From a virus: a stretch of DNA of 64,000 nt. The position numbers and the translations under genes are program-made. The notes under the pieces are model-generated. The model had not been told where the DNA came from and did no database searches. It saw nothing but the letters and a program-made list of their open reading frames with translations. Below, one piece after another: positions 3,052-29,199 of the stretch (its first letter is position 1; each line of letters begins with the position of its first letter). The stretch covers positions 1-64,000 of the IMG/VR virus record IMGVR_UViG_3300005732_000005; one strand, written 5' to 3'.

Positions 3052-3070
3052 ATAAGAATCATTATCAACA

Positions 3071-3100
3071 AATGCCACTGTAAAATGTGGCATTCTTTTT
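3071..3100 (+). terminator. rho-independent terminator ending early block
   Basis: AATGCCAC-loop-GTGGCATT followed by CTTTTT. Confidence 0.65.
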
Positions 3101-3110
3101 GCATACTAAA

Positions 3111-3130
3111 TGTTATGTTATAACATAACA
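3111..3130. promoter_or_regulatory. Zur-box-like palindrome
   Basis: TGTTATGTTATAACATAACA contains two overlapping TGTTAT-N3-ATAACA cores; another core TGTTATAGTATAACA at 4578-4592. Confidence 0.55.
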
Positions 3131-3394
3131 AAATCTCTATTCACTTAATGAATAATTCCCACCTATAGCAAGTATCTAGCAAGCTACGTGCCAACTTGAT
3201 TTTACTAAAACACACTCCCTCTGAAAGCCTTATAAATAAAGGGCTAGAGACTTACGTCCTCAAAAGCAATTCCTGAGCATATGCAACACTACCCAATACA
3301 CTAGCTCAGGTTAATTAACCTTGCTCATACAGGCTCTCTCAAGGCGTTATATCTATATAAAACACTTTGGCACAGTATGTGCATATGAATAAAC

Positions 3395-3487: not shown

Positions 3488-4547
3488 CATTATCTACTAC
3501 GTAGATGCAAGTAGTTCTCATTTACAAACAGTTATTAACCATAGGTTAAATGATAATTATTCTTATTACACTAGAACACACATAAATCTAAATGATAATC
3601 ATTACTAAATACGAATAGTTATCATTAATAAACTCTAATAATATCAATAATCTAAATGAGAATTGTTTTTATTTGCAATGTGCAAATGAGAAGTGTTATT
3701 GTTTAAGAATTAATCTTATTTAGAAATGTTAGCGTTTGTTAACATAAATAGTAATTATTCTTATTTAGATTACTTTATTAATCTTTTTAATGAGAATGAT
3801 TCGTATTAATTGATAAATTAAAATGTGGTATGTTGTTTGCATGTAATGCAAGAAGGATACCTCTTTGTTGCTATGCAACATATATGCCAAACTACCTTGA
3901 AAGCCTTTATTTATATAGCCATGGCTATATGAGAGTGATTGTTATTTGCAATTGCAAATTAAAGTAGAATGTTATGTTACATAGTAACAAAAGGGGGATA
4001 TTCGTCAACCTTGTTGACAAAGACAGGGTATTGTGAGAAGGGATAATTGGGGAAGGGGATTGCTGTAGTGGGAGTTGTGGGGGAGAGGGGTTTAACAAAC
4101 CACGAACACTAACACGACAACAACACAAGACCATTCACCTACTGTTACATAGTAACAAAAGTAAACACCATCTATTGCGTAGCAATAAAAGTACACTCTC
4201 TGTTAACATCGTTAACAAATATATAACCTTTCAAACAATAATCCTCTCACAAGCAATAATATCTCTGATGTAAATTAATTGTTAATAAAAGGTATGTTCT
4301 CGTTAACGTAGTTAACAAAGTGTAAACCCCCTTTACAAAATACAACTATTCATCATATCTATGATAAGAAGTATTATATTCATCTAACTAATACGACATA
4401 ATATAGAATATGTTAAATATAGATGAGAATGATTCTTGTTTGGAGGGAATACTTATTCAATAGGAATTGTTGTTATTTGAGAGGGATTCTCATCAACTAC
4501 GTTGATAAAAGAGATACTTGTTGAGAGGGGTTCTTATTTGAGGGAGT

Positions 4548-4940
4548 AGGATATTTTATACGGAAAGTAGGTTGTTATGTTATAGTATAACAAACGTTGA
4601 GCAATGCTCACTTTACTTTCCACTTTTCCATAAATATCATTTACTTACAGATATTCTTCTCCAGATATTTCCACCCTCATACAAGGATATTTCTCCCCCC
4701 AAAATTTTATTTTTGTAATATAGGATATTTTTATATACTCCGTATATAGAGTGTGGTATGCTTTAAAAGGAGGTTAGTATTTTTATTATTTTTAGTATAT
4801 TTACTAAAGGCAAGCCTATTTTTCCTTAATTAAAACAATAACTTACAGAGAGGTTTAGACAAAATAATTTCATTTTGTAGGAGATATTTTTAATGGTTGT
4901 ATATATTTGAAAGTATGTTATTATTAAGAGTAGGATATTT
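4548..4940 (+). repeat. iteron-like direct repeats, candidate replication origin
   Basis: Seven same-strand GATATT(T/C) copies (AGGATATTT at 4548, 4684, 4722, 4932; CAGATATT at 4648, 4662; GAGATATTT at 4881) immediately upstream of a helicase-like gene. Confidence 0.45.
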
Positions 4941-4976
4941 TATTTTTAAAACACACTTAACAGAGGAGAAATATTT

Positions 4977-6257
4977 TTGAAGATAGAACTTATTGATTAC
5001 ATGATGGGTACAGGTAAGAGTAGTTATATTTTGGACAAGGTAGTTGATTGGAGTAATGAAGGTCTTTATGAACAGTTTATCTATATAAGTCCATTACTAA
5101 GTGAAGTAGGTGGTAAACGTAAAGAGAAAGGTAAAGGTTTCTTAAGAGGAAGAGTTCAAGAGAAAGCAGATTGTATGGACTTTAGATACCCTCTTAATAT
5201 ATCAAGTTCAAAACTAGATAGTTTTAGAGATTTACTTTTAAAAGGTAGTAATATTAGTGCTACACACAATGTATTTACAAACCTAACACCTTTAGATGTA
5301 GACCTTATTAAGGAGAGGAAGAATGTTCTCATCATTGATGAGGAAGTACAAGCTTTAGATACATATACAGATTTAGGTGTAAAGCATTTACAAGTATTAA
5401 TCAATGGTGGACAGGTTTATAAGGATGAAACTAACAGGTTATGTTGGAATCACAGATTGTTTCCGCAAACAGAAGATTTCCTAAATAACCCTTCAGAAGA
5501 TACATACTCTAAAAACGATTTACAGTTATCTAAATTCATTAATTTGTGTGATGGTGGTTACCTTCATTCGGTGAATGATAAGATTATGATCTGGGAATAC
5601 CCTATTAGTGTTCTAGAAGCTTTTGATAAAGTTATTGTCATGACTTATATGTTTGAAGCTAGTCCTATGTACTCTTGGTGTAGGATGAATAACGTTGATA
5701 TTGTCAGACTAGATATACCAGAACTTAAATCCAGAGAGGATGAGATAAAAGCGTCTCTAAAGGATTTAGTAACTGTAGTAGAAACCAGTAAGATGAAGAC
5801 AATAGAGAATTTTGGGTATAGTTATTCTTGGTGGAAAGGTACAGGTAGTAACAAAACTTACACAGCAAAGGTTAAAAATGTTTTAGAGGATTGTGTACAG
5901 AACCAATTAAAAGGTTTAAGTTACAAGGACTATATATTCACCTGCCCAGAGAATAGTTTCCCCAAAATTAAGGGTAAGAGATACAGCAGGAGTGACTGGT
6001 TGTATAGTGATTGTAAAGCTACCAACGATTATGCAGACAAGAAGGTTATGTTCTACCTTTACAGTAAGTTCCCTAATGTGTTTATTAGCCCTTTTTGTAA
6101 AGAGAAAGGTGTGAGTATTGACGAAGACATGTATGCCCTCAGTTCTATGCTACAGTGGTTGTGGAGAGGGTGTATCAGGAAAGGAGAACCTATGAAAGTG
6201 GTGATATTAAGTAAGAGAATGAGGGATTTGTTTAAGGAGTGGTTGGATGGAGAATAA
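4977..6257 (+). CDS. SF2 helicase-like / putative origin-binding protein
   Basis: Walker A MGTGKSS, Walker B IIDEE, C-terminal QWLWRGCIR motif VI-like; TTG start with GAGGAG RBS. Confidence 0.7.
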   Translation: MKIELIDYMMGTGKSSYILDKVVDWSNEGLYEQFIYISPLLSEVGGKRKEKGKGFLRGRVQEKADCMDFRYPLNISSSKLDSFRDLLLKGSNISATHNVFTNLTPLDVDLIKERKNVLIIDEEVQALDTYTDLGVKHLQVLINGGQVYKDETNRLCWNHRLFPQTEDFLNNPSEDTYSKNDLQLSKFINLCDGGYLHSVNDKIMIWEYPISVLEAFDKVIVMTYMFEASPMYSWCRMNNVDIVRLDIPELKSREDEIKASLKDLVTVVETSKMKTIENFGYSYSWWKGTGSNKTYTAKVKNVLEDCVQNQLKGLSYKDYIFTCPENSFPKIKGKRYSRSDWLYSDCKATNDYADKKVMFYLYSKFPNVFISPFCKEKGVSIDEDMYALSSMLQWLWRGCIRKGEPMKVVILSKRMRDLFKEWLDGE

Positions 6258-25283: not shown

Positions 25284-26120
25284 CTAATCAGTTATCATTT
25301 CAAAACCAATCTTACCAAGATGTTCATAACCTGTCAACTTAAAATATTCTCGTGCATGCCAATCTGGTACATAAATATCTGACATCATATTGATTTTAGA
25401 GTTTACTTCAACAACAGGATTGATGTCAAGCGGTTTACGCTTCAACATTTCATAGACACCTTCCAAATGTGGCTCGTAAATGTGTGCGTTGGTTATATTA
25501 TGTTTCACAACTCCTTGTTCCAAACCTGCAATATGGGAGAGTATCTTATTCTCAATCCATAAACTGAATGCGTTAAAAGGTTTCCCAACCGCATAATCTG
25601 CAGATCTTTGCGTTGCCCTTGTATGTAGCTTCCCGTCTAGAATAGTATAAATTGTTTGGAACAAGCATGGGCGTAGACATCCCTTGTCAAACAACTCTGG
25701 CCTCCAGAAATTCATTATCAGTCCACGGTCATCTTCGTGCATAGCTATCTTATTCAACAATTCTGGAATTTCATGAGGTTCTGTAGCCGCACCATACACT
25801 CGACCCATATCGTCAACACCTTTACAATAAGGTTTATTTTGCCACGAATCTTTGTTGGCATCCTTGAACCAAGTAGGGCTACCTATATCTGCAAACTGTT
25901 GTGCATTACAATAAGCTCTCCAATACCCAACCCTCTCTGCCCAACTGCTTACTGGGAAGCATTGTTTTACTGTTAACAAAGACACATCTTCAGGTTTGTA
26001 GGTGAAATCTAGGAAAGGAACTGTTAAACAATCCACTCCTGTTCGCTGATTCTTAATCCACTTACCTTCATCTAAGATATACTGTAACGCATCTAGATAA
26101 TCTTTTTCATATTTTAACAA
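25284..26120 (-). CDS. thyA: thymidylate synthase
   Basis: RTG, MGRVYG, LRPC, QRSAD...G.PFN, NAHIY..H. Confidence 0.9.
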   Translation of the reverse strand: MLKYEKDYLDALQYILDEGKWIKNQRTGVDCLTVPFLDFTYKPEDVSLLTVKQCFPVSSWAERVGYWRAYCNAQQFADIGSPTWFKDANKDSWQNKPYCKGVDDMGRVYGAATEPHEIPELLNKIAMHEDDRGLIMNFWRPELFDKGCLRPCLFQTIYTILDGKLHTRATQRSADYAVGKPFNAFSLWIENKILSHIAGLEQGVVKHNITNAHIYEPHLEGVYEMLKRKPLDINPVVEVNSKINMMSDIYVPDWHAREYFKLTGYEHLGKIGFEMITD

Positions 26121-26420
26121 CTACATTCTCTCCTCAATAATCCAGTTAATACTTAAGAACTCAAACTCTTTCAAATTATAAAATTCTGGGTCGTATGGGT
26201 TCTTTGTAAGATTTTTCTCTATCATCAAGTCATACCTATTATCCTGACACCATTTCGTCCAGACATCCCAACAATCTATATGGATCACTATCTTTGTAAA
26301 GGTATCTAACTCTACTCGATATGTGTTGTTTCTAAAAGGTAATAACTTATGTGCAATATCTATTGTCTGGTCAACGATGTCAATATAACCTAGACAATCT
26401 TCAAATTTTTCAATCTTCAT
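26121..26420 (-). CDS. hypothetical protein; its RBS overlaps the R'' box of attC1
   Basis: GTTAGGAGAAGAA-ATG on minus strand. Confidence 0.65.
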   Translation of the reverse strand: MKIEKFEDCLGYIDIVDQTIDIAHKLLPFRNNTYRVELDTFTKIVIHIDCWDVWTKWCQDNRYDLMIEKNLTKNPYDPEFYNLKEFEFLSINWIIEERM

Positions 26421-26426
26421 TTCTTC

Positions 26427-26483
26427 TCCTAACAAATTAATTAAAGGGACAAGACAAGCTTGCCCGTTATTGTAAAGTTACAC
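26427..26483 (+). mobile_element. integron attC site 1 (57 bp)
   Basis: TCCTAAC-AAATT-AATTAAAGGGACAAG..CTTGCCCGTTATT-GTAAA-GTTACAC; stem with two extrahelical bases. Confidence 0.75.
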
Positions 26484-26525
26484 CCCAATCCCCTCAACCA
26501 TTCACCCTTTTAAGGAGTAAATTTT

Positions 26526-26792
26526 ATGGAACACAAGATAAACCCTGACGATATAACTAACTTTTATCTAGTAAATGTTGAAACAGGTAAACATTTCGAG
26601 GGTTTCGATAAAGATACTGTAATATCTTCCCCGCTACCACCTAAAACAGGTGAATACTTAAATCAATCAGGTTGTTATTTTGAGGTTGTAGGTATTCTTC
26701 AACACTTTGATCAGAACCTTGTAGAAGTTTTCGCAAAAGGTTTAGGTGATAGCTCGGCTTTTCTAAGATACCTACAAAACAAAGTTCAGTAA
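26526..26792 (+). CDS. cassette-borne hypothetical protein
   Basis: AAGGAG RBS; opposite strand to flanking phage genes. Confidence 0.75.
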   Translation: MEHKINPDDITNFYLVNVETGKHFEGFDKDTVISSPLPPKTGEYLNQSGCYFEVVGILQHFDQNLVEVFAKGLGDSSAFLRYLQNKVQ

Positions 26793-26965
26793 GTCCAAGT
26801 AGGACTTTTTACTGCGTGTCTATATAATTCTTCATAGGCACGTTCATTCACAGTTTCACGGTACTCTGTGAGCAAAGGTACAACCTTATCTAAGATTTCT
26901 TTTTGCTCTAAAGTTTTCTTACCAAGAGCTTTTTGTAAATCTAATAAAATATGATCTAATTGCAT
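26786..26965 (-). CDS. small convergent ORF (59 aa, MQLDHILLDLQKALG...)
   Basis: Hand-translated; AGAGGA RBS; 3' end overlaps 26526-26792 by 7 nt. Confidence 0.55.
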   Translation of the reverse strand: MQLDHILLDLQKALGKKTLEQKEILDKVVPLLTEYRETVNERAYEELYRHAVKSPTWTY

Positions 26966-27066
26966 AATAAATTTTCCTCTAAATAAATTAATAAAAGTGT
27001 AATCTATTGTAATAAGTGTTTGTTTTAACTTGTGGTAAATTGTTCGCTTTAAATGGAGCTTTTGTT

Positions 27067-27453
27067 ATGAAAACCCTTTATAAAATAGACAAACACTTAT
27101 CAGACAAATTACTAAAACATATGTTTAACTCTTATGTTAATCACAGAGGAGAAACAACAGGAAGTCTATCTGACTATTGCTTCAACCCTCTATCTGAAAA
27201 CACAATACCTGAGTTACTTACAACCAATGAAAGTGGTAATTCTGTTAATAAAACCTCTGATTATTTCAGGGACTTTGAAAAACGTGGCTTACTTACTCAA
27301 AACGGAGTTTGTTATTACTTGACTGAAGAAGGTTACAAACAAGGTCTAAAGGTAAGTCAGCCTGTAAAACAATTCTTAAAAACACAGTGGAAATGGTATT
27401 TACCTGTAGTCCTTTCTTTAGTTGCCGCTACCACAGGAATACTACGCTTATGA
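27067..27453 (+). CDS. cassette-borne protein, possible winged helix plus C-terminal TM anchor
   Basis: GGAG RBS; RGLL...YYLTEEG wing-like motif; WKWYLPVVLSLVAA hydrophobic tail. Confidence 0.65.
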   Translation: MKTLYKIDKHLSDKLLKHMFNSYVNHRGETTGSLSDYCFNPLSENTIPELLTTNESGNSVNKTSDYFRDFEKRGLLTQNGVCYYLTEEGYKQGLKVSQPVKQFLKTQWKWYLPVVLSLVAATTGILRL

Positions 27454-27511
27454 TAGTTATTGCACACATCCACCAAGCTATGTAGACATCTTCATCCTCT
27501 TTCTTACTCAA
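27428..27511 (-). CDS. small hydrophobic convergent peptide (27 aa, MSKKEDEDVYIAWWMCAITIISVVFLW)
   Basis: Hand-translated; TTG start with AGGGG RBS; overlaps 3' end of 27067-27453. Confidence 0.35.
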   Translation of the reverse strand: MSKKEDEDVYIAWWMCAITIISVVFLW

Positions 27512-27553
27512 AATATACCCCTATATATAAATTACATAAACAAATATAATGTG

Positions 27554-27611
27554 GTGTAACAAGTGGTTAAACTAGGAATCGCTTCGCTCTCCTGTTAACC
27601 AAGCGTTATAA
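27554..27611 (+). mobile_element. integron attC site 2 (58 bp)
   Basis: GTGTAAC-AAGT-GGTTAAACTAGGA..GCTTCGC..TCCTGTTAACC-AAGC-GTTATAA; two extrahelical bases. Confidence 0.88.
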
Positions 27612-27643
27612 CCTACACTATCAACCCTGAAAGGAGTTTTAGA

Positions 27644-27886
27644 ATGTCCTATTACAAAGAACCTTACCATTTCAAGGCAGGTTTCCATCCAAAATGTCCC
27701 AACTCAGAATGTAAGAGTACTAATATAGATATATCACTTTCCGAACACCTGTACGGTCCTGCTAATGGTAATTATGAAGTAATATACTGTAAAGACTGCC
27801 ATACATTCTTAGGTGCTCATCCTGTAGTAATTCAAAATCTACATCCAGATATTAAAGATGAGGATAAGATCAAACTGGGTGACTAG
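27644..27886 (+). CDS. cassette-borne zinc-ribbon protein
   Basis: AAGGAG RBS; CPxxxC and CxxC pairs. Confidence 0.7.
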   Translation: MSYYKEPYHFKAGFHPKCPNSECKSTNIDISLSEHLYGPANGNYEVIYCKDCHTFLGAHPVVIQNLHPDIKDEDKIKLGD

Positions 27887-28031
27887 GCTGTTTAGTTGCC
27901 GTATTTGCTTTGGCTAGTGCTAATAAAGCTTCAATCCTGATAATTCTCTGGGTTTCTGCTGGTGTGTTTTCTAAACTTCTACAATCATTAGCCAAAGCAG
28001 CAATTGCTGCAAAGATGTCTCTGTTGTTCAT
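27870..28031 (-). CDS. small convergent ORF (53 aa, MNNRDIFAAIAALA...)
   Basis: AGGAG RBS; overlaps 3' end of 27644-27886 by 17 nt. Confidence 0.55.
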   Translation of the reverse strand: MNNRDIFAAIAALANDCRSLENTPAETQRIIRIEALLALAKANTATKQPSHPV

Positions 28032-28061
28032 AATTATTTCTCCTATTTTCAATTTAGGGTG

Positions 28062-28118
28062 TTATAACAAGTTAATTAAGCGGACTTGCTTCGCCTGCCG
28101 CTTATTAAGGCGTTACTT
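28062..28118 (+). mobile_element. integron attC site 3 (57 bp)
   Basis: TTATAAC-AAG-TTAATTAAGCGG..GCTTCGC..CCGCTTATTAA-GGC-GTTACTT; architecture like short aadA-type attC. Confidence 0.88.
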
Positions 28119-28132
28119 TAACAAAACTCGAA

Positions 28133-28387
28133 TCAGTTGTCAACACTTCCAACACTACTTTCTTCAAGCCATTTATCAAAATCGTCGTCTCCAGAGTAAT
28201 CTACTTCTCGATTAACAAGGGTATACATTTCCTGAGAAGCTGCTAACCACATTGCTGCCTCTAGAGCATTATCAAACTCTTCAATGACTTCCTTTGTCTC
28301 AAAGTTGATTAGTGCAGAAGGTTTGTTCTTTCCTACACCAAAATCTACTTCAATAAGGTTATTTTCTTCCACAATATTATCGCTCAA
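28133..28387 (-). CDS. acidic hypothetical protein
   Basis: TTG start after GAGGTG. Confidence 0.55.
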   Translation of the reverse strand: MSDNIVEENNLIEVDFGVGKNKPSALINFETKEVIEEFDNALEAAMWLAASQEMYTLVNREVDYSGDDDFDKWLEESSVGSVDN

Positions 28388-28516: not shown

Positions 28517-28705
28517 TTATTGTTTCTCCTCGTTAAAAACCACTTTTCGGGTAGATTGGAATAATGTAGAAAGATTACTACTTGTATGATAGTTATTCAC
28601 ACTACCAGTCCAATGCTTTCCAATATAACCACACCTTGTTAAACGTTCATTTTGTGTATATTCATTTAGCTCTTGTGCTGTTTTACATTGTTTGTATGAT
28701 GTCAT
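28517..28705 (-). CDS. hypothetical protein
   Basis: ORF with GGAGG RBS. Confidence 0.5.
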   Translation of the reverse strand: MTSYKQCKTAQELNEYTQNERLTRCGYIGKHWTGSVNNYHTSSNLSTLFQSTRKVVFNEEKQ

Positions 28706-29199
28706 AGTTCCTCCAACCACAGTTTAATATATTCTTGGACAAGAGATTTCTTATCCAAGCCAGAAATTCTTTTTCCAAAGTCTGTGAGTATCTTATCCTC
28801 AACTTTATCCTTTGTCAAACGATCTATTTTCTTTCTAACCTCGTTCATATAAGCATAGTGATAAGGTTTATCAGAATTATCTTTCTTAAGGTAGTTTCCC
28901 ATTCTAACAAGGAATTCTGGAAAGTCAATATCATATTTCTGCTCAATCTTCATTTTCTTAAATAACCCTAAGAAACGTCCTTCTAGCATATTAACTTCAC
29001 TTGTCAGAAGACCTCTTACCTTTCCATCACATCCTATCCCATTATCGTGGGTATGGTCAAGGACTAAATTTCCCGAATGACCAGTTATTTCACACAATTG
29101 TTCCAGAGAGTCTTTATATTCCTTAACACCCTTTGCGTTACGTAACCAGTCTTCGGGAAGAGAAACCCCTTTATGAGGTTTCTTTCTTCTTTTTGTCAT
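28702..29199 (-). CDS. endonuclease VII-like protein
   Basis: LCEITG...LVLDH.H....GKVRGLL...N..EG. Confidence 0.75.
   Translation of the reverse strand: MTKRRKKPHKGVSLPEDWLRNAKGVKEYKDSLEQLCEITGHSGNLVLDHTHDNGIGCDGKVRGLLTSEVNMLEGRFLGLFKKMKIEQKYDIDFPEFLVRMGNYLKKDNSDKPYHYAYMNEVRKKIDRLTKDKVEDKILTDFGKRISGLDKKSLVQEYIKLWLEEL

Follow-up and report, generated by a model that had tools for sequence, protein, structure and literature searches.

Three convergent ORF pairs

We analysed positions 26526-28031 of a 64,000-nucleotide stretch of viral DNA (positions 1 to 64,000 of IMG/VR record IMGVR_UViG_3300005732_000005; hereafter the window), in which small open reading frames (ORFs) converge in pairs between palindromes resembling the attC sites of integron cassettes. 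The source record is a complete virus genome of 140,374 bp with direct terminal repeats, and the window is its first 64 kb. An earlier note, made from the letters alone, had described six ORFs in three convergent units with 3′ overlaps of 7, 26 and 17 nucleotides (nt), and these coordinates and overlaps proved exact. The six ORFs, with lengths in amino acids (aa), are as follows.

26526..26792, plus strand: u1+, 88 aa; AAGGAG ribosome site; codon score 0.35
26786..26965, minus strand: u1-, 59 aa; GAGGA ribosome site at 9-nt spacing
27067..27453, plus strand: u2+, 128 aa; GGAG ribosome site; codon score 0.24
27428..27511, minus strand: u2-, 27-aa hydrophobic ORF; TTG start; poor ribosome site GGGG
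27644..27886, plus strand: u3+, 80 aa; AAGGAG ribosome site
27870..28031, minus strand: u3-, 53 aa; AGGAG ribosome site at 8-nt spacing

Coding quality was assessed with a codon log-odds score trained on 88 long phage ORFs, using 551 spurious small ORFs from the other frames of long genes as the control, and ORF length was assessed against 2000 dinucleotide shuffles per spacer. Real phage genes have a mean codon score of about 0.28 in in-frame windows. The score of u1- (0.38) was equalled by 0.2% of the 551 spurious ORFs, and a reverse ORF of its length arose in 3 of 2000 shuffles (0.15%); for u3- (0.26) the corresponding values were 1.3% of the spurious ORFs and 30 of 2000 shuffles (1.5%). 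Because they pass both the codon and the shuffle test, u1- and u3- are probably real genes. The 27-aa u2-, a hydrophobic ORF with a charged N-terminus and a hydrophobic tail that overlaps u2+ by 26 nt, is at chance level in both respects: its codon score of 0.04 was equalled by 21% of the spurious ORFs and its length by a reverse ORF in 266 of 2000 shuffles. The third pair (27067-27453/27428-27511) is thus probably without a real reverse gene, and two of the three convergent pairs are real. The claim that each leftward ORF has its own ribosome site holds for u1- and u3-, whose sites are good, and fails for u2-, with its GGGG and TTG start. At 26786-26815 of the window, exactly at the u1+/u1- junction, a T run comes after a short hairpin (AGTAAGTCC ... 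GGACTTTTTACT); this is possibly a weak two-way terminator inside that overlap.

attC sites and the cassettes they delimit

Imperfect palindromes of the form TAACAA...GTTA occur at 26430, 27557 and 28065. A covariance model, R1, was built from five equal-length sites of this attC type with the structure set by hand; it replaced RNAalifold run on a MAFFT alignment of 14 attC sites, which gave no structure and misaligned the arms. A hairpin finder of our own for TAAC...GTTA was too noisy over long spans. R1 found three attC sites, every match being on the plus strand; they are listed with possible remnants of a further site.

26426..26484, plus strand: attC_A, degenerate, at the left end of the array; R1 26.3 bits, E 8e-4
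26970..27021, no strand assigned: possible decayed attC left-half remnants between units 1 and 2, from local alignments
27553..27612, plus strand: attC_B, R1 73.6 bits; closes cassette 1 (26478-27605)
28061..28119, plus strand: attC_C, R1 71.2 bits; closes cassette 2 (27606-28112); fold design as in attC_B

All three sites have TAAC...GTTA ends corresponding to the inverse core sites R'' (RYYYAAC) and R' (GTTRRRY), with core 7-mers that match the attC consensus loosely (e.g. GTTATAA). Both attC_B and attC_C adopt the attC fold of R box, spacer, L box with an extrahelical base, and loop. The bottom strand of attC_B, as single-stranded DNA (ssDNA), has a fold energy of -9.0 kcal/mol (z -2.9); in this fold an unpaired spacer separates the R box from an L box that has one extra base, and the loop is GCGAAGC. 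The R box comprises 4-5 bp in the ssDNA folds of both sites. The left-end site, attC_A, folds weakly into a partial structure only and is 71% identical to attC_C over 42 nt; attC_B shares 85% identity over 54 nt with an attC of Pseudoalteromonas phage H101. The sites share one polarity and a G|TT boundary, and the identity between paralogous cassettes of H101 begins and ends at GTTAT. In R'', L'', L' and R', unpaired spacer, extra base and G|TT boundary, the elements resemble cassettes of the Vibrio superintegron type.

The bottom-strand apical loops of attC_B (27580-27586) and attC_C (28088-28094) carry GCGAAGC or GCGTAGC. The same loop occurs in the sites of H101, L025 and L019 (the L numbers denote comparison sequences) and is common to this attC family; we take it to be the very stable DNA mini-hairpin motif d(GCGNAGC), which would seed folding of the recombining strand. 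A T4-type shuffling element, consisting of a promoter plus a stem-loop, was also considered for the palindromes and rejected, as they are attC-like in sequence, fold and boundary behaviour; recombination of H101-type sites by IntI1 likewise speaks against it.

Polarity was read with a rule calibrated on the aadA1 attC of plasmid R100, in which the gene-direction strand has the extra base in its 5′ arm. In attC_B and attC_C the extra base sits in the 5′ arm of the plus strand, and the plus strand is therefore the attC top strand, as in the R100 site. Its direction opposes the leftward transcription of the phage. With three attC sites, the array comprises two cassettes, 26478-27605 and 27606-28112, and the three cassette units of the earlier note reduce to two, units 1 and 2 sharing one cassette. 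Cassette 1 carries two forward genes and at least one reverse gene, and cassette 2 one forward and one reverse gene; neither has the canonical content of a single promoterless ORF facing attC with its stop at or near R''. A decayed attC had also been proposed between units 1 and 2. The left halves of attC_A (p 0.004) and of attC_B (p 0.03) align weakly with parts of the spacer concerned (26966-27066), which gives no R1 match at E <= 1 and no fold (z +1.2). The similarity makes a decayed attC at this point possible.

No match to the tyrosine recombinase family (PF00589) was obtained in the complete 140,374-bp genome. A complete integron would have intI and attI adjoining the array, and neither IntI nor attI is present. 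Given a genome without tyrosine recombinase, the element is a CALIN (an attC array without integrase) and not an integron.

Forward and reverse cargo in related cassettes

Arrays of attC sites in lytic phages have already been published (Qi et al. 2023). The published CALINs of lytic phages include that of Pseudoalteromonas phage PH101/H101, in which two of four attC sites recombined with attI1 via IntI1; in the portion of that paper considered here, the PH101 cassettes are termed co-oriented, typical of bacterial arrays, and no mention is made there of forward/reverse gene pairs or of cargo running against attC polarity (PMC9892861). The PH101/H101 array is like the present one in being an integrase-less attC array in a lytic marine phage, with a site 85% identical to attC_B. 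It differs, as described in that portion, in two respects: a forward gene is accompanied by a reverse gene in the cassettes here and, as re-read by us, in those of H101, and most phage cassettes of this type hold reverse genes only. Our search of the literature found no published description of the paired forward/reverse cassette layout.

Cargo direction was compared between viral contigs and bacterial genomes using one attC pattern and the same R1 scoring for both, with direction taken from the longer ORF of each cassette. A first viral pattern, TAACAAG...GCGTTAT, had returned nearly all chance matches (an R1 match at 1 of 100 loci checked); a pattern including the loop motif GCTWCGC worked better. 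The cassettes were distributed as follows.

Bacterial arrays: forward 20, reverse 3, unclear 10
Viral arrays: forward 1, reverse 15, unclear 7

As the same pattern and model served for both sets, this contrast would be the same whichever strand were called top. In 14 of 19 viral contigs, most genes flanking the arrays run opposite to the attC top strand. One array (L025) has at least eight sites of this attC type, and nearly every cassette in it holds a single ORF on the minus strand, with its ribosome site and start directly against the R'' end of the following site. At several viral loci (L159, L156, L160, L240, L144 and others) the last 6 nt of the reverse ORF often lie within the 3′ end of the adjacent attC match. 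The TAA stop of such reverse cassettes is the complement of TTA in the R' box GTTA, mirroring the stop of forward genes in R''.

The plus-strand genes of the array are arranged like integron cassette genes, as the earlier note had supposed: they have a short promoterless leader and a ribosome site, they run in the direction of the attC top strand, and relatives of two of them lie in forward cassette arrays (L018, L019-22, L023). Promoterless forward genes facing attC are also the rule in cassettes of the Vibrio superintegron type, and relatives of u3+ and u1+ lie in such arrays. The minus-strand ORFs, in keeping with that note, follow the leftward gene block of the phage, which is the usual cargo direction in phage arrays of this attC type. 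Relatives of u3+ (69-82% identity) were found in Vibrio and metagenomes, with a proportion of nonsynonymous differences (pN) of 0.09-0.21 and of synonymous differences (pS) of 0.62-0.99, the latter saturated; relatives of u1+ comprise eight cluster representatives at 35-64% identity. With pN far below pS, the forward genes have been kept as coding sequence.

These families occur with and without reverse partners. A member of the u3+ family forms a canonical single-gene cassette in L018, with its stop inside the R'' of an attC of about 125 nt and no spacer such as u3- occupies; other members lie outside cassettes in Vibrio chromosomes with their own terminator (L013, L015). In L019-22 the family occurs in a forward-array cassette adjoining an AIPR gene and is followed by a converging 57-aa ORF, which has an AGGAGA site, overlaps the forward gene by 14 nt and is unrelated to u3-. 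The u1+ family is found in a forward array with no reverse ORF in L023 and is paired with an unrelated 76-aa reverse ORF in L025. Canonical cassettes such as that of L018 have one forward ORF with its stop in or next to R'', whereas in the phage cassettes here the 170-190 nt after the forward stop encode a gene on the opposite strand.

Phage H101 (L002) gives a further view of how such cassettes are built. Two of its cassettes agree fully between G|TTATAC and the forward start codon (a shared forward leader of about 84 nt, 3057-3140 and 4464-4547) and again from the reverse start codon through attC (a shared reverse leader plus attC of about 110 nt, 3553-3664 and 4954-5066), while both coding interiors are unrelated. 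The 82-aa forward ORF of one cassette (4545-4793) has no GenBank annotation, and the forward frame of the other is broken after 8 codons; the two reverse ORFs are deposited as coding sequences (CDS), annotation in H101 being confined to the reverse genes.

The earlier note had suggested, as one option, that the pairs are toxins with antidotes, and it had named conservation of the reverse ORFs in bacterial copies as one check. Homologous cassettes carry either no reverse ORF or an unrelated one. As partners are absent or replaced, they appear to be swappable, which argues against toxin-antidote or other obligate pairs; on the sequence comparisons, forward and reverse partners are independent of each other. 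A broader form of the idea is that the pairs are coupled modules, either toxin-antidote or type I-like with overlapping transcripts in mutual control, with u2- as a small membrane toxin. Converging, 3′-overlapping layouts are typical of some type I toxin-antitoxin (TA) loci, and chromosomal integrons commonly contain TA cassettes that have promoters of their own. The charged N-terminus and hydrophobic tail of u2- would suit a membrane toxin, and an antisense promoter in one cassette can suppress a neighbouring cassette (PMC11014356). These points are outweighed by several others: u2- cannot be told statistically from a chance ORF, u1- and u3- are hydrophilic helical proteins and not membrane peptides, the reverse ORFs of all compared cassettes show no similarity to one another, and none of the six ORFs, nor any reverse ORF from related cassettes, had a match above threshold in Pfam, PHROGs, PADLOC or NCBIfam. 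TA cassettes of chromosomal integrons likewise hold two small genes, with expression independent of the cassette promoter Pc, but those genes are co-directional, belong to conserved families and are inherited together. The pairs here converge, match no family and swap or lack partners, which also separates them from type II TA operons, with their co-directional, conserved and co-inherited genes. With no co-inheritance, orphan reverse ORFs and no match to a TA or defence family, the toxin-antidote reading can, on these comparisons, be set aside, and we consider coupled modules of any kind very unlikely.

Another explanation is that the reverse ORFs are not genes, but long untranslated 3′ regions or regulatory DNA with chance frames, leaving the forward genes as the only cargo. 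It would fit the chance-level u2- and the result that u1- and u3- have no relatives among 5.8 billion proteins or, by tblastn, in phage genomes. Gene-less, promoter-bearing cassette DNA is moreover known from Vibrio superintegrons: the antisense promoter of a gene-less Vibrionaceae superintegron cassette suppresses the upstream cassette (Nucleic Acids Research (NAR) 2024, PMC11014356). Bottom-strand transcription that suppresses an upstream cassette is the effect that the earlier note proposed for the reverse genes, and this is its closest precedent in print; those cassettes differ in being gene-less and bacterial, whereas here the bottom strand has an ORF with a ribosome site and the transcription driving it would be that of the phage. 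However, reverse ORFs of such lengths are rare in shuffles (0.15% for u1-, 1.5% for u3-), the codon scores of both equal those of real phage genes, and their ribosome sites are canonical and correctly spaced. The same slot also holds a reverse ORF led by a ribosome site in L019-22, L025 and H101, the two deposited reverse CDS of H101 have an identical leader, and the canonical form of the u3+ cassette is without any such spacer. We therefore regard chance frames as an improbable account of u1- and u3-.

Expression, origin and genomic setting

We lean, with modest confidence, towards reading the locus as a two-cassette, integrase-less array in which each pair is an integron-style forward gene and an independent, phage-style reverse gene sharing an attC. 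The reverse gene would be a separate small gene placed between the forward stop and attC, laid out like the single reverse genes of phage cassettes. Directly observed are the anatomy of the locus, the coding quality of u1- and u3-, the polarity of the attC sites and the exchange of partners among homologous cassettes; how the genes are expressed and how the pairs arose is inferred. Leftward phage transcription, arriving by read-through or from the candidate site at 28143-28115 described below, would read the reverse genes. The forward genes would be silent or covered by antisense RNA during infection, and their expression would require a rightward promoter from outside, for instance Pc in a bacterial integron. 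Tight packing, and not a coupling device, would then account for the 3′ overlap. The pairs may be composite in origin, either through fusion of a forward cassette with a reverse one once the attC separating them had been lost, which would fit the weak remnants after u1- (26970..27021), or through exchange within shared leaders such as those of H101.

Several observations weigh against this interpretation. As u1- and u3- are without relatives, neither conservation nor the ratio of nonsynonymous to synonymous rates (dN/dS) supports their translation. Cassettes of one contig are not independent, so the Fisher test (p 4.6e-7) overstates the strand contrast between viral and bacterial arrays, and the longest-ORF rule for direction is crude, leaving 17 of 56 cassettes unclear. 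The comparison sequences L019-22 and L025 are short contigs that may come from a bacterium or from a phage. No attC remnant was found at the forward/reverse junctions, which makes the fusion origin a conjecture. Finally, the region has no excess of promoter-like sites over shuffles (7 found, 9.6 expected).

The candidate promoter and the signals with which it was compared are listed below; "genome" refers to coordinates of the complete genome.

28115..28143, minus strand: leftward promoter-like site, TTGACA-17 nt-TAAAGT, preceded by TG; 10/12 in a consensus scan; candidate
Window 55220, 59468, 61069, plus strand: examples of TGTTATAAT
Genome 66235, 76971, 82306, 94492, 103018, plus strand: examples of TGTTATAAT
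Genome 85960, 79902, minus strand: examples of TGTTATAAT

The site at 28143-28115 reads into attC_C and u3-. A search for 8-mers enriched upstream of genes gave no strong promoter motif, and inspection of one 8-mer led to TGTTATAAT, a box of the extended -10 type. It has 13 copies in the genome, 8 of which lie 22-50 nt before a ribosome site and start, mostly in rightward genes beyond 51.6 kb, and it is probably a promoter signal of the phage itself, judging from this placement. Of the 9 bases of TGTTATAAT, 8 are shared by the attC R box GTTATAAC at 28062-28069 (both strands) and 7 by the one at 27605-27612.

This resemblance bears on a further alternative, in which both genes of a pair are expressed in the phage from inward promoters at the cassette ends, formed by the attC R boxes and leaders, and are tuned by transcriptional interference. 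The positions are suitable: the u3+ start follows the GTTATAAC box in R' of attC_B by 31 nt, and the u3- start follows the one in R'' of attC_C (bottom strand) by 29 nt. The H101 cassettes, moreover, have identical leaders on both sides with a TACAAT box, read by eye, in the forward leader. Yet the GTTATAAC boxes end in C where every gene-proximal copy of TGTTATAAT has T, the other TGTTATAAC copies in the genome are, bar one, not followed by genes, the forward leaders of the array, at only about 40 nt, lack a -35 element, and promoter-like sites are, as noted, not enriched. We consider inward promoters rather unlikely and retain expression of the reverse genes by leftward phage transcription as the preferred account.

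Integron cassettes are usually described as one promoterless gene facing attC and are now known to store anti-phage defences. A wider proposal, which takes up the bi-functional cassettes suggested in the earlier note and which we regard as doubtful, is that two-faced cassettes are a shuttle format, with one gene readable from Pc and one readable by the phage, moved by host integrases between chromosomal integrons and lytic phages. The backward orientation of phage arrays, by which we mean that the attC bottom strand serves as the sense strand, would then have a mechanistic cause, e.g. easier folding of the recombining strand, and the R boxes may double as TGTTATAAT-matched inward promoters. 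If opposite-strand cargo in phage arrays and two-direction cassettes are borne out, phage and chromosomal-integron gene pools would be connected through host integrases, a connection that annotation misses, and the small orphan reverse genes would become candidates for phage counter-defence or host takeover. The 57-aa reverse ORF of L019-22, for its part, is called by a gene caller. The direct result is more modest, namely that two of the three pairs are real, that their partners appear independent, and that the toxin-antidote reading can be set aside.

Nearly all long ORFs between 7.5 and 51.5 kb of the window lie on the minus strand, forming a leftward gene block, and within this block three plus-strand ORFs stand together only at the stretch studied here. 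It is bounded by a ThyA-like gene (25284-26120) and an endonuclease VII-like gene (28702-29199). At the corresponding spot of a related phage (L011; ThyA-like protein 76% identical) lie a TnpB-like gene and further ORFs, and no array or palindromic sites were found there. The ORF at 3990-5471 of L011 (493 aa) is, as we presume by eye, a putative TnpB/IS200-IS605-type OrfB protein. Because the related phage has other genes and no array at this spot, the spot is variable and the array acquired, in a 140-kb marine lytic phage whose natural host is probably a Vibrio or a related bacterium.

As to the forward proteins themselves, u3+ has four conserved cysteines (CP..C ... C..C) and is probably a zinc ribbon, judging from this pattern; its last 10 or so residues form a variable tail, and its predicted model (predicted local distance difference test, pLDDT, 58) was too poor for a fold search. 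The predicted structure of u1+ is beta-rich and confident (pLDDT 83); compared with the PDB by Foldseek, it gave nothing at E <= 0.001, the best match being a HisI-like fold at E 0.08. For u2+, no close relative was found among genome contigs. It has weak matches to HTH_45 and Sso10a and structural look-alikes in an atlas of predicted models among DtxR/MntR-type regulators (TM about 0.5), and, as a lead only, these would suggest a winged-helix domain with a C-terminal hydrophobic helix.

One further gene touches the left end of the array.

26121..26420, minus strand: leftward 99-aa gene; start and ribosome site directly next to attC_A, a layout shared with the reverse cassettes of L025

This gene starts 9 nt from the TAAC of attC_A, and its ribosome site (GGAG) is formed by the R'' flank of that site. 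The G|TT boundary rule places attC_A in the cassette of this gene, which together with attC_A may therefore represent a third, reverse-only cassette.

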